From Hormiphora californensis (Eukaryota; Animalia; Ctenophora), in the NCBI GenBank assembly GCA_020137815.1, contig CM035358.1, positions 62,001 to 126,000 of the forward strand: 64,000 bases of DNA, given 5' to 3'. The notes below the pieces were generated by a model that worked only from the letters and a program-made list of their open reading frames with translations, did no database searches and was not told the DNA's origin. Every line of letters begins with the position of its first letter. Position 1 is the stretch's first letter. The position numbers and the translations under genes were made by a program. Below, one piece after another: positions 33,907-52,300 of the stretch.

Positions 33907-35814
33907 GAGTGTTCAAAATAAATAAATAAAATTTGGGTTTTTAGGCAACTTTTCCGGCCTACTAATTTCAATTAGTTTTGGTATAATCTGCATCATTTTG
34001 GGGATTTTTTATCCATGTAGATTTAGTAGAATAGGTACAGAGAGGTTGGAATCGCGAAATTGAGAAACTTTCATTTTCGACGTCATTTTGACGTCACGAC
34101 GTTGTAACGTCAAAATTATGACGTCATATTATCGGGCCCGCCTAAGTGAAGATACTGACCAAGTTGTATCGATTGGATGAGATTTGAGTCCGCTATAGCG
34201 AAAAAACCCATAGCATCATATCACTGCGCTGGAAAGCGCAAAGGTGACCACCACCTCCCCCAGCCGCGCGTGCCAGAAAGCAGTAATAAGTTTTTTTTCA
34301 GTTTTTAGCGAAAAATGTCATTTTGCGAGGCCCATAGCGAAGCCCCCACTGCACCAATCGGTCTGAATTTTGGTATACAGTGTCACGTAGACTAGATCTA
34401 ATGGGGTTTAAAAGGACAAGTCTCTATCTCTTTAAGTTTCAGAGTTATGTCATGGTGAAAAAAGCAATAAATGTCCCGGGTCTATATCTTACTATATAAT
34501 GCAAAAACACCCGAAACTTGATCCCACCCATGCATGTTTGGTGGTCCCTAAATCGTCGTCATCAAGATCAGATCACGTAACAAGTAGCATGCTAGGAGCA
34601 CCCCACATGCATGATCAGATCACCCCACTGAGGATCAGATCCCCTCACCCAAGATCAGATCATCCCATAGAGGATCAGATCACCCCACCCATGATCAGAT
34701 CACCCCAGTGACTATCAGATCATCCCAGTGAGAGAGAGAGCGAGCGAGAGAGAGAGAGAGAGAGAGAGAGAGAGAGAGAGAGAGAGAGAGAGAGAGAGAG
34801 AGAGAGAGAGAGAGAGAGAGAGAGAGAGAGAGAGAAAGAGAGGGACAGAGAGGGACAGAGATAGAGATAGAGAGGTAGGACTAAGAGGAAACTGAGAAGT
34901 GAGAGTTTTATGCCATCCGTAGGATGGCCTGGGTCCACTAGTATCCATATATCCATATACATATCCGGTACTGGAATTGCTGCTGCAGCAGGCCACAACA
35001 GGGTCTATTCCTAAGGTCGCCCCGAATCCTCCTTTTACTCTCTAAAATATTCCGCACTTTGACCAACATGCAAACAAATGCTTGTCGTGTGTCCTTTTCT
35101 CATCGTATCAAGTTCTAATAAACACCATCTTTTAGAAAATTTAATTCTGAGTTTGCTGGTGAAAACTAGGTTTAATTTGGAAAACAACAAGCAAAATGAC
35201 AGCAAAAACCGCGTCCGACTACCAAAATCAGTCACACTAACCAAGCATTTTGTTTTGATTGTAGCTCAGGAACTAAAACCGATCTCAAAAATCGGCCACA
35301 TGTCCCACCTAGAACTTTGTCTCATCTTTCCCATGGTACCGGAGTTGTACAGATTGGGCCAATACCCATGATTTCTATAAAGAAAAACAACGAAAAAAGC
35401 AATTTTGCTTCAAAATCACACTGCTCTCTCCTCCAAATTAAGGTCGCCCCAAACGTATTTGCCTATGTATCTCTCCCACTCACTAGTTAACACCACAATC
35501 TCACCAATCTGGTTTGGCTCTCGAGATGGGAGAGAATGTGAGAACAACGTAGCGAGGGAGAGAGATACATACCAAAATACAAAATAAGGTCGCCCCAGTA
35601 GTATGTTCGTATGTATCTCTCTCTCCCCCACTGCCGAGATGAGTGAGAATATGACAACAACGTAGCGAGGGAGAGAGATACATACCAAAATACAAAATAA
35701 GGTCGCCCCAGTAGTATGTTCTTATGTATCTCTCTCTCTCCCACGACTATGGTGCTCGAAATGGCTCATGTTGAATTGAGTCGTCTTTCTGTGTTAAATT
35801 ATAAAAAGCGAACT

Positions 35815-36200
35815 AAAAGTGAGAAGAAATTGAAGTGAAAACAAAGTGAAGTGAAAAAAAAGTGAAGTAAAAACAAAGTGAAGTGAAAAAAAAGAGATGT
35901 GAAAACAAAGTGAAGTGAAAATAGGTGAAGTAAAAAAAATTTGAAGTGAAAACAAAGTGAAGTGAAAACAAAGTGAAGTGAAAAAAAAATGAAGTGAAAA
36001 AAATGTGAAATGAAAACAAAGTGAAGTGAAAAAAAAGTGAAGTGAAAAAAAAGTGAAGTGAAAACAATTACAAAGTGAAGTGAAAAAAAAGTGAAGTGAA
36101 AAAAATGTGAAGTGAAAAAAAAGCGAAGTGAAAAAAAAGCGAAGTGTAAAAAAAGTGAAGTGAAAAAAAAGCGAAGTGAAAAAAAAGTGAAGTGAAAAAA
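35815..36200 (+). repeat. (AAAAAAAGTGAAGTG)n array inside the left TIR, mirrored at ~50090-50470
   Basis: Read directly on both arms. Confidence 0.9.
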
Positions 36201-36959
36201 TTTTGATTTGACCTCTTGGTGAGTCTCGTGCTCTAAATGGCTCAGGTGGCTCAGGCTCAGCTGCGCGCGAAACGATGAAGGTCTATGTCGCCGCGCGTTA
36301 CATCAACTCATTGAGCTGTGTGTGACATGTGGGTCAAAACTCAAAACTTTCCAAATACCCGGCAGTACGCATTGAAGACGGTGTTGTATGTCGTCCTTAA
36401 TACATGTGTATGCCTGTCTTGTACACATACATGTTGGTGTGCGTGTTGGTGTGTGTGTGTGTGTGTGTGTGTGTGTGTGTCTGTGTGTTTGATTGTGTAT
36501 TTGATTGTTCGTAAGTTGTTATACATGGCCGTGACTGTTAACACTTTCTTCCCAATCAGACTCACAAAAGCCATAATCTACCATTATGCTACTCGAACCA
36601 GAGCATGGAAAAGAACCCTCTGTTAGACAATAAGTCTGTATTTTGGTGAGATCGGTATTGCTGGAATGTTTTGGTTAATAACCCATCACCCAATCACCCC
36701 ACCCGGCATCCCTCCCGTTTCACCCCACGGTTTAGAGGCATTGTTTGTAACTAATGGTCGGAGCAGTCAGATCACTTTAAAACAAGGGCAAAGAACCCGC
36801 TTATCGAGAAGGTTCCATGCTCTAAAGGACAAGTCGTGTATTTAGAGGGGGTGCCTCAAAACACCCAAGTAATTAATAAAGAAAAACTAACTTCTAGTTC
36901 AAGATATAACTGGTCACATAACGCTTAAAAACTGTTTATATGAAAACATTACAGACTTT

Positions 36960-49080: not shown

Positions 49081-49218
49081 TATATATGTATATATATATT
49101 TATTGCAATAATTTATAATACTAATGGACACTGTGATAATGGACACCTGTAAAAGAATGAAATTCTACATGATTGATTTTTATATACATTTATATGCCAA
49201 TTTGATTATTTTTAAACG

Positions 49219-49362
49219 GTGTGTGTGTGTGTGTGTGTGTGTGGGTGTGTGTGTGTGTGTGTGTGTGTGTGTGTGTGTGTGTGTGTGTGTGTGTGTGTGT
49301 GTGTGTGTGTGTGTGTGTGTGTGTGTGTGTGTGTGTGTGTGTGTGTGTGTGTGTGTGTGTGT
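49219..49362. repeat. (GT)n microsatellite
   Basis: Read directly. Confidence 0.95.
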
Positions 49363-52300
49363 TTATCCCCATTGGTTTTTATTTTTTAAAAGAATTCTTT
49401 ATTAATTACTTGGGTGTTTTGAGGCACCCCCTCTAAATACACGACTTGTCCTTTAGAGCATGGAACCTTCTCGATAAGCGGGTTCTTTGCCCTTGTTTTA
49501 AAGTGATCTGACTGCTCCGACCATTAGTTACAAACAATGCCTCTAAACCGTGGGGTGAAACGGGAGGGATGCCGGGTGGGGTGATTGGGTGATTGGTTAT
49601 TAACCAATACATTCCAGCAATACCGATCTCACCAAAATACAGACTTATTGTCTAACAGAGGGTTCTTTTCCATGCTCTGGTTCGAGTAGCATGCCAACCG
49701 ATGCATTAATGGTAGATTATGGCTTTTGTGAGTCTGATTGGGAAGAAAGTGTTAACAGTCACAGCCATGTATAACAACTACGGACAAACTTACGAACAAT
49801 CAAATACACATTACATTTACACACACACACACACAGTCACACACACACACACCAACATGTATGTGTACAAGACAGGCATACACATGTATTAAGGACGACA
49901 TACAACACCGTCTTCAATGCGTACTGCCGGGTATTTGGAAAGTTTTGAGTTTTGACCCACATGTCACACACAGCTCAATGAGTTGATGTAACGCGCGGCG
50001 ACATAGACCTTCATCGTTTCGCGCGCAGCTGAGCCTGAGCCACCTGAGCCATTTAGAGCACGAGACTCACCAAGAGGTCAAATCAAAATTTTTTCACTTC
50101 ACTTTTTTTTCACTTCGCTTTTTTTTCACTTCACTTTTTTTACACTTCGCTTTTTTTTCACTTCGCTTTTTTTTCACTTCACTTTTTTTTCACTTCACTT
50201 TTTTTTCACTTCACTTTGTAATTGTTTTCACTTCACTTTTTTTTCACTTCACTTTTTTTTCACTTCACTTTGTTTTCATTTCACATTTTTTTCACTTCAT
50301 TTTTTTTTCACTTCACTTTGTTTTCACTTCACTTTGTTTTCACTTCAAATTTTTTTTACTTCACCTATTTTCACTTCACTTTGTTTTCACATCACTTTTT
50401 TTTCACTTCGCTTTGTTTTTACTTCACTTTTTTTTCACTTCACTTTGATTTCACTTCAATTTCTTCTCACTTTTAGTTCGCTTTTTATAATTTAACACAG
50501 AAAGACGACTCAATTCAACATGAGCCATTTCGAGCACCATACACGACTTAACACCATGTTCTCACTGTGTGTAAAGTTGCAGATCTCAGCAGGAGGGGGG
50601 AGGTTTGGTTGTGTGGTTCTGCAAAGCTCGAACAGAATATGAAATTAGTATATTCCTGATTCTGATTTATATGAAAGCAAAATCCACTTTACCCGACTAA
50701 TTTTGATACGCTGAATCACATCAGCAACTTTTCCAAGCCCTCAGAGGTGGGGAAATTGCCATAATTGAGCATAATTGGGTATTATGTATATGGGCATATA
50801 CATGTAGTTTGTTAATTTTCTCTAGGTATTTCATTTATTGATGCAATGCTAGATACTCCTCAGATCCTACTATTTACCCCAACAGAAATCCTACAGGACC
50901 TTCTAGACACCCATGATTTCAGACTGAAAGAGACCCTGCTAAACAGCCTGAGAAGGATATATAGCACGACCTAACAGGTCTTGATTTGGGGGGGGGGGGG
51001 GGGGCATTTCGCAGGGTCTGCTTTCTGAGGGGTCTGTAGTAGGATAACTTACTGCCTTTCTCTTTCTCTTTCTCTCTCTCCTTCTCTCTCTCTCTCTCGC
51101 TCTCTCTCTCTCTTTCTCTCTCTCTCTCTTCTCTCTCTCTCTCTCTCTCTCTCTCTCTCTCTCTCTCTCTCTCTCTCTCTCTCTCTCTCACTCACCATTT
51201 TAGGAGGGAGGGGGGCAAAGACTAATTTTCAGACCTCTAGAACGAAAATCTTTTTTATTGGAATGAACATTTCCATTCATTTCAAAAAGATTCGGTGAGA
51301 ATGGTTGGAAAGATAATCGACAGCTAAAGATAATTGCTTGAATTCGAGATCGAAAAACGATCTTTTTGAAATGAATGGAAATGTTCATTCCAATAAAAAA
51401 GAATTTCGTTCTAGAGGTCTGAAAATTGGTCTTTCCCCCCCCCCCTCCTAAAATGGTGAGAGAGAGAGAGAGAGAGAGAGAGAGAGAGAGGAGAGACTGA
51501 GAGAGAGAGAGAGAGGGAGAGAGGAGAGAGAGGAGAGAGAAGAGAGAGAGGAGAGAGAGAGAGAGAGAGAGAGAGAGAGAGAGAGAGGAGAGAGAGAGAA
51601 GAGAGAGAGAGAGAGAGAGAGAGAGAGAGAGAGAGAGAGAGGAGAGAGAGAGAGAGAGAGAGAGAGAGAGAGAGAGAGAGAGAGAGAGAGAGAAAGAGAG
51701 AGATAGAGAGAGCTAGAGAGAGAGAGAAAGAGAGAGAGAGCTAGAGAAAGAGAAAGGCAGTTAGTTATCCTACTACAGACCCCTCAGAAAGCAGACCCTG
51801 CGAAATGCCCCCAAAATCTTACAAGACAACCCGTTAGGTCGTGCTATATATCCCTCTCAGGCTGTTTAGCAGGGTATCTTTCAGTCTGAAATCATGGGTG
51901 TCTAGAAGGTCTTGTAGGATTTCTGTTGGGGTAAATAGTAGGATCTGAGGAGTATCTAGCATTGCATCAATAAATGAAATAGAGAAAATTAACAAACTAC
52001 ATGTATATGCTCAGTTATGCCCATATAATACCCAATTATGCTCAATTATGGCAATTTCCCCACCTCTGAGGGCTTGGAAAAGTTGCTCATGTGATTCAGC
52101 GTATCAAAATTAGTCGGGTAAAGTGGATTTTGCTTTCATATAAATCAGAATCAGGAATATACTAATTTCATATTCTGTTCGAGCTTTGCAGAACCACACA
52201 ACCAAACCTCCCCCCTCCTGCTGAGATCTGCAACTTTACACACAGTGAGAACATGGTGTTAAGTCGTGGGAGAGAGAGAGATACATAAGAACATACTACT

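Follow-up and report, generated by a model that had tools for sequence, protein, structure and literature searches.

The 14.8-kb element at positions 35748-50541 of the window (the whole 64,000-nucleotide stretch of DNA analysed here) is very probably a cut-and-paste DNA transposon of the IS3EU/GingerRoot type that carries an alpha-kinase gene as the stable partner of its transposase gene. The element looks intact and has TATGG..CCATA termini; its terminal inverted repeats (TIRs; 35748-36883 versus 50541-49395, 1.14 kb each) are 96.4% identical over 1151 columns, with the outermost 93 nt identical and 711 of 720 positions matching without gaps from the ends, and it is flanked on both sides by an exact 6-bp target-site duplication (TSD), CACGAC (35742-35747 and 50542-50547). 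The TIR alignment and the flank comparison confirm the ~1.14-kb TIRs, the ends and the 6-bp TSD proposed in an initial annotation of this DNA. The same annotation had located an empty site in the other arm of the palindrome that surrounds the element: the two flanks joined through a single CACGAC (111 nt) do find an exact match in the opposite arm of this foldback (52000-53100, minus strand), and the foldback itself is a high-copy repeat, not unique host DNA. Both genes lie between the two TIRs, which supports the earlier proposal that they are contained within the element. The boundaries and the repeats in and around the element are as follows.

34999..53011, no strand: high-copy foldback repeat hosting the insertion, with its left arm at 34999-35747 and 50542-51193 and its right arm, unbroken and containing the empty site, at 51613-53011
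35742..35747, plus strand: left target-site duplication CACGAC, with an exact copy on the other side
35748..36883, plus strand: left TIR, starting TATGG, with a subterminal tandem array of 16-bp units at ~35800-36200
37295..38071, no strand: dispersed repeat nested in the element, probably as a secondary insertion; it recurs at 6373-6625 and 11598-12376
38201..38432, no strand: short nested palindromic repeat directly past the stop codon of the transposase, present again at 12920-13124
42086..43537, no strand: intergenic stretch rich in high-copy repeats, where many divergent contigs match
45427..46427, no strand: nested MITE-like palindrome that recurs at 55063-56311
49395..50541, minus strand: right TIR, ending CCATA
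50542..50547, plus strand: right target-site duplication CACGAC

The two genes are divergent, and their exons are as follows.

38436..41553, minus strand: DDE transposase, 405 aa, open, with D148/D212/E250, in 8 exons (41553-41405, 41228-40878, 40452-40281, 39833-39722, 39547-39400, 39309-39231, 39112-38984, 38513-38436)
43553..44587, plus strand: three upstream exons (43553-43610, 44296-44412, and a third beginning at 44517)
47195..48783, plus strand: alpha-kinase exons (47195-47363, 47522-47635, 47846-48783), with the whole catalytic domain in the last exon

The transposase frame has no internal stops and all seven of its introns are GT..AG. It is 39% identical to the transposase of the relative L063 over 371 columns (E=3.6e-76), and the catalytic residues are conserved among aligned relatives (D148 in 26/27, D212 in 24/25, E250 in 20/23). 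The Pfam comparison recommended with the initial annotation succeeds in part: three consecutive exons match consecutive parts of the PF24764 profile, in order, each under the curated cut-off; the same profile matches the transposase of the relative L034 with E=2.8e-22. The first catalytic D (D148) falls within 100-300 residues of the N-terminus, and the HHCC motif is absent, judged by eye.

For the kinase, a single spliced gene of six exons (43553-48783, plus strand) had been proposed. This model is open, encodes 477 aa and has canonical introns (GT..AG in 5/5), but a reading as two genes fits the family better: judging from the sequence, the exons of 43553-44587 either form the 5' part of the 477-aa kinase, spliced onward from 44554, or encode an 81-aa protein of their own, with a stop ending at 44587, and the 477-aa "kinase" may be this 81-aa protein plus a 405-aa kinase. 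We give roughly even weight to the resulting three-gene model, in which the transposase is accompanied by a 405-aa kinase starting at ATG 47198 and, at 43553-44587, by an N-domain protein of 81 aa. The 81-aa protein has its homologue in the N-terminal domain that IS3EU kinases carry; exon 3 extended to its stop completes this family domain, scoring 15.4 and 15.1 bits versus 8.7 and 11.3 bits for the fused model, and the maximum among 488 reported shuffles was 7.9 bits versus the 15.4 of the three-gene reading. The tail that begins at ATG 47198 is basic and resembles those of the relatives (30% K/R, versus 17% from ATG 43553), and an AG acceptor-like site lies shortly 5' of each of the three ATGs. 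On the other hand, the fused model is in frame with good donor and acceptor sites, the N-region of the 405-aa protein scores only -0.1 and 0.1 bits on the N-domain profile, and in a six-frame scan multiple N-domain matches at one locus proved to be complementary pieces of a single copy, not two copies. Another possible donor, at 44583, was discarded on visual inspection because the candidate exons that follow it close the frame.

Under either gene model, the last exon matches the Alpha_kinase profile (PF02816) over its whole length (E=4.7e-28, 99 bits versus a cut-off of 21.3), as the Pfam check named in the initial annotation had anticipated, and the predicted structure (pLDDT 88.9) has the kinase of TRPM7 (1ia9) as its best Foldseek match (E=1.6e-15, TM 0.78). 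The protein retains 17/17 invariant columns of a 14-sequence alignment, with the catalytic and zinc-binding residues intact; the proline that follows the metal-binding D is substituted, in a column that is only nearly invariant. Sequence and model place it in the alpha-kinase family. With the host alpha-kinases (TRPM7 kinase, MHCK-A, eEF2K, ALPK1) it has in common the fold, the catalytic K/E/D/Q/D, the Gly-rich motif and the zinc-binding H/C residues; it differs in being only ~22% identical to them, in lacking channel, WD40, Sel1 or vWA domains, and in sitting inside TIRs. A full HMMER search with the window kinase finds 980 relatives, the best at most 38% identical, and the protein forms a long branch in the tree; because of this divergence, three word-based protein searches with it returned no matches. 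None of 50 candidates in a scan of viral contigs was related. The N-domain, for which no sequence match was found in Pfam or PDB, is predicted in the relative P0128 to follow a strand-strand-helix-strand-strand order, which may point to a ubiquitin-like (beta-grasp) fold, searches of the whole model being swamped by the kinase domain. K and R make up at least 20% of the first 30 residues in 17/18 related kinases, and the basic N-terminal tail suggests that the kinase may act in the nucleus.

The termini, the 6-bp TSD and an integrase-like DDE core without HHCC, all found here, uphold the assignment of the element to IS3EU; the available portions of the superfamily descriptions (Kojima and Bao 2023, PMC10045372; PMC6839031) give the same TA..TA termini, 6-bp TSD, DDE core without HHCC and first D 100-300 residues in. 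The pairing of transposase and alpha-kinase, which the initial annotation regarded as undescribed, is not a new system, because fungal IS3EU families bearing an alpha-kinase have already been published: section 4.1 of PMC12730594 (Kojima 2025), as far as its accessible text extends, describes TET+ IS3EU families of fungi with a transposase and an alpha-kinase in opposite orientations, TAYGG..CCRTA ends and 6-bp TSDs. These elements of rust fungi and Tuber agree with the window in their ends, in TIRs longer than 30 bp, in the TSD and in the opposed genes, "opposite" in that text fitting either a convergent or a divergent layout and the window being divergent; the window differs from them in its 1.14-kb TIRs, in its likely animal host, and in that general inspection of the stretch separating its two genes brought up no TET/JBP gene. 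The word "kinase" occurs 0 times in the available portions of PMC10045372 and PMC6839031, a literature search on kinase function in IS3EU found no paper, and the structure and function of IS3EU have been described as largely unexplored (PMC11934779). A kinase in animal IS3EU may already be described in Repbase, a 2019 review by Kojima or supplements. The locus is an intact-looking addition, likely from an animal, to a known IS3EU group.

The pairing is nearly constant among relatives. These were metagenome kinase loci, and they are biased to one subgroup because the pattern that retrieved them derived from 8 database kinases and made no use of the window; the window transposase was matched (E<=1e-3) at 37/64 kinase loci, and a homologous transposase occurs at 28 of the 30 metagenome loci whose downstream sequence extends for 2 kb or more, or 13 of 14 sequence clusters, the two loci where it was not found being L013 and L032. 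Complete relatives with TIRs and a 6-bp TSD are L008 (7315 bp), L027=L028 (4777 bp) and L056 (4217 bp); these unannotated elements have TAYGG ends, the 6-bp TSD, the kinase clade and the N-domain in common with the window, and their transposases are homologous to its own (mostly 35-47% identity in long matches), whereas their genes are convergent, their kinases mostly intronless, their TIRs 253-430 bp and their lengths 4.2-7.3 kb. The head-to-head layout first reported for the window is real but unusual, all 37 transposase-bearing loci having the tail-to-tail order.

This difference in gene order, together with the divergence of the window kinase, might suggest a one-off Pack-type capture of a host alpha-kinase without function for the transposon, and GingerRoot elements do take up host gene fragments; in the accessible part of the same source, however, such captures are fragments, not whole genes (PMC6839031). 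In the tree, the window kinase falls in a clade with 9/9 transposase-adjacent kinases and 0/17 kinases with host-type domains (SH-aLRT 92.9, UFBoot 96), and it shares with the IS3EU kinases the N-domain and an extended motif ahead of the kinase domain. The dN/dS comparison that had been proposed, run on the relatives' kinases, gave 0.21-0.35 in 12/12 informative pairs (~3 independent contrasts, some ORFs being truncated), which indicates purifying selection. Distances among the kinases correlate with those among the transposases (Mantel rho 0.43, p=0.0002, 18 loci), a pattern that shared host lineage could also yield. Capture as an isolated event is therefore largely refuted and in our estimation very improbable, and the stable partnership put forward in the initial annotation stands on the constancy of the pairing, the dN/dS values, the co-divergence and the kinase clade.

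Near-identical TIRs, an exact TSD and a second flank in another sample point to recent mobility of the element. In this second sample the transposase is present in near-identical contigs, and in one contig the TIR end borders another flank, 135 nt long, which may belong to a non-autonomous copy. Run X6 has almost no contig cover on the transposase exons and 0.04 of the kinase-region words, with the flanking repeats covered; this pattern could be an insertion polymorphism, absent contig cover being no proof. The empty-site junction is present in X1, X3 and X6 and was not counted because its flank is high-copy.

The element would transpose through excision by the DDE transposase, probably at the TATGG..CCATA ends, and through insertion that the transposase likely drives with a 6-bp staggered cut; the alpha-kinase is very probably the regular, co-inherited second gene of the IS3EU/GingerRoot group and would likely aid transposition through phosphorylation, either of the transposase itself or of a protein in the insertion complex. 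That the kinase acts on the transposition machinery is a tentative reading, to which we give a little less than even weight. Possible, at lower confidence, is an accessory that counters silencing or modulates the host, in which the kinase phosphorylates a chromatin, small-RNA or translation factor of the host in trans, outside the transposition reaction; other or neutral roles make up the remainder. The basic tails of related kinases are compatible with nuclear or nucleic-acid targeting, and eEF2 and myosin are among the host proteins on which host alpha-kinases act. The gene is nevertheless retained in both fungi and animals, despite their differing silencing systems, and its near-constancy and co-variation with the transposase suit a dedicated partner better. 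Rust IS3EU families also bear TET/JBP dioxygenases, proposed to counter silencing by methylation, but in the available text of that study the TET genes are patchy and mobile across superfamilies (PMC12730594); because the kinase stays constant beside the transposase while TET genes hop between superfamilies, a role in transposition is favoured. A complex prediction for part of the L015 transposase with its kinase, run without alignments, scored 0.00 and is uninformative either way. A reading in which IS3EU elements of fungi and animals alike require the alpha-kinase as a core part of transposition, with the genes here flipped head-to-head and the N-domain split off as an 81-aa partner, seems to us rather unlikely as a complete account.

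The locus adds mainly an intact, probably animal, example of a known pairing, and the near-constant pairing, purifying selection and co-divergence suggest, at the level of sequence, that the core genes of IS3EU include the alpha-kinase outside fungi as well. Were the kinase a required core component, IS3EU would be a kinase-dependent cut-and-paste system so far mentioned only in passing in print, and the intact element offers a direct means to test the use by a transposon of its own protein kinase. A link between IS3EU and expansion of the alpha-kinase family is plausible, because rusts have both an expanded alpha-kinase family (PMC4469406) and, according to the accessible text of PMC12730594, kinase-bearing IS3EU. 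Annotators should treat lineage-specific "expansions" of short alpha-kinases with caution, as these may be transposon genes.

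The IS3EU element in the window is a real, intact-looking transposon that bears the regular kinase gene of its group. Its parts are as follows.

Features of the element (window coordinates)
35748-50541, IS3EU element of 14,794 bp, bounded by terminal inverted repeats (TIRs) and by duplications of the target site (TSDs)
35748-36883 and 49395-50541, TIRs in inverted orientation, from pairwise comparison
41553-38436, minus strand, transposase of 405 aa in eight exons
43553-48783, plus strand, initial six-exon model of the alpha-kinase
37295-38071, 38201-38432, 45427-46427 and much of 42086-43537, nested repeats, which inflate the length of the element

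Sequence comparison bears out the boundaries proposed in the initial annotation: the TIRs are 96.4% identical across 1151 columns, without mismatch between the two copies in their outermost 93 nt; the element begins with TATGG and ends with CCATA; and the TSD CACGAC adjoins it on both sides. The host site is one arm of a foldback repeat, itself present in high copy number in four DNA runs, and the opposite arm holds the empty site that had been claimed, an exact 111-nt join of the left and right flanks with one CACGAC, so that all DNA between the TIRs, including both genes, came by one insertion.

Elsewhere in the window are four other features, the first and last characterized by eye.

26512-33057, plus strand, two long open frames of 969 and 1212 codons; looks like an intact non-LTR retrotransposon (ORF1; endonuclease and reverse transcriptase)
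14569-18720, large foldback with outer arms of 715 bp (99% identical) around inverted 32-bp minisatellite arrays
59916-60287, minus strand, conventional protein kinase exon (PF00069, E=1.1e-8), presumably of a host NAK-family gene
53788-54976, plus strand, fragment with frameshifts, similar to a Penelope-type reverse transcriptase and GIY-YIG endonuclease

The DDE transposase stands as an eight-exon frame without internal stop, with GT..AG introns (7/7) and a catalytic triad of D148, D212 and E250 that is conserved among the relatives aligned there (26/27, 24/25 and 20/23, respectively). In Pfam, three successive exons match the integrase core PF24764 in order (positions 30-81, 82-116 and 120-166; E=0.1, 0.0033 and 0.00016), each under the curated cut-off. 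Independent support for the exon chain comes from the long match of the spliced protein to L063, a nearly uninterrupted relative on a metagenome contig (39% over 371 columns, E=3.6e-76). An Atlas search with exon 2 returned clusters that at 0.9 or above were all eukaryotic, some with PF24764. By analogy with the family, the transposase would bind the TIR ends, excise the element and integrate it with a 6-bp stagger.

The last exon of the alpha-kinase matches PF02816 across profile positions 1-185 (E=4.7e-28), and the predicted structure of this exon (pLDDT 88.9) matches the folds of TRPM7 kinase, MHCK-A, eEF2K and ALPK1 (best E=1.6e-15, TM 0.78). In an alignment of 14 sequences the enzyme conforms at 17/17 invariant columns, and so it looks catalytically intact. 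At E<=0.001 a full HMMER search gave 980 relatives; identity to the best of them is 38%. One database alpha-kinase of 1052 aa (P0016) also bears the DNA-binding domain of a Tc5 transposase (PF03221, E=8.8e-7), which may be a further link of alpha-kinases to transposon parts.

The claim of a single spliced kinase gene holds insofar as the six-exon frame is open (477 aa), and an alternative drawn from the sequence is equally probable. Several relatives have an architecture, not in Pfam, of basic N-terminal tail, domain of ~85 aa, linker and kinase; this N-domain (~85-90 aa) is conserved at the N-terminus of IS3EU-associated kinases (L007:273-545 and 48 further metagenome loci). If exon 3 is extended to its stop at 44587, the result is a protein of 81 aa in which the N-domain is complete and which reaches 15.4 and 15.1 bits against two N-domain profiles, versus 8.7 and 11.3 for the fused model and a best of 7.9 among the 488 shuffles listed of 500; ATG 47198 would then open a 405-aa kinase with a basic tail as in relatives, whose own N-region gave no score against the N-domain profile. 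An AG acceptor-like site lies at most ~15 nt upstream of all three candidate ATGs (41553, 43553 and 47198), which would fit introns in the 5' UTR or trans-splicing of a spliced leader.

The initial annotation took the alpha-kinase partner to be undescribed, a view that must be abandoned: the element belongs to a kind already known from the available text of PMC12730594, on fungal IS3EU families, where those that bear TET genes have TAYGG..CCRTA ends, 6-bp TSDs, and a transposase and an alpha-kinase gene on opposite strands. Our literature search, with Repbase content outside it, found no other paper on an alpha-kinase-IS3EU link and none on kinase function in IS3EU. In the portions available, other sources take TA..TA ends and 6-bp TSDs as the definition of IS3EU/GingerRoot (PMC10045372), say that the ancestral IS3EU encoded two proteins (PMC10853768), mention derivatives with multiple genes (PMC3520738), list families in zebrafish, Hydra, beetle, acorn worm and fungi while terming structure and function largely unexplored (PMC11934779), report captured gene fragments and no kinase (the GingerRoot paper, PMC6839031), and describe alpha-kinase expansion in rusts (PMC4469406, PMC5295586).

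That the partnership is stable, as had been claimed, is upheld by relatives. When metagenomes were scanned with an alignment of 8 kinases from the database, the window kinase not included, 64 loci came back. Of these, 37 match the window transposase at E<=1e-3, including 28/30 that extend 2 kb or more downstream from the kinase; by sequence cluster, 13/14 with that much downstream sequence match, and 16/26 overall. In a tree that includes 168 of 176 sequences, the clade of the window kinase takes in 17/17 of the transposase-adjacent kinases and 0/17 of those with host-type domains, a placement backed by a 41-sequence maximum-likelihood tree (SH-aLRT 92.9, UFBoot 96).

Three distinct relatives are complete: each has TIRs of the TAYGG type and an exact TSD of 6 bp.

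L008, 7315 bp, TIR 430 bp
L027 and L028 (the same insertion), 4777 bp, TIR 342 bp
L056, 4217 bp, TIR 253 bp, weak transposase match

Nested 300 bp within the outer TIRs of L027, at 9942-14120, is another perfect inverted pair with TATGG..CCATA, which lacks a TSD of its own. The peculiarities of the window element are small: TIRs longer than in these relatives, a possible third small gene, and head-to-head gene order, whereas in 37/37 transposase-bearing loci the transposase lies downstream of the kinase on the opposite strand (tail-to-tail); since most loci have little upstream sequence, head-to-head relatives could escape detection. Within the species, the kinase region was found in five DNA runs from two studies, the best-matching of which may be the window's own source; contigs across the transposase in a second sample differ at 0-3 positions each, and one contig in which 135 nt of a different flank adjoin the TIR end weakly suggests another insertion of this TIR family there.

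The proposed dN/dS analysis, run on relatives' kinases, gave 0.21-0.35 in 12 pairs, those among 25 unique ORFs whose synonymous divergence could be measured; they are equivalent to about three independent contrasts. Kinase and transposase distances are correlated across 18 loci (rho 0.43, Mantel p=0.0002; 0.35 without 8 close pairs), to which common host ancestry could contribute. Being co-inherited and under selection, the kinase is likely to benefit the element. Its putative target is tentatively the transposition machinery, as the kinase stays with the transposase while TET cargo (TET/JBP dioxygenase genes) moves between transposon superfamilies, according to the available text of PMC12730594; host silencing is a possible but less favoured target. 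The N-domain, whose predicted strand/helix order resembles a beta-grasp and for which sequence searches of Pfam and PDB gave no match, could mark transposon-borne alpha-kinases.
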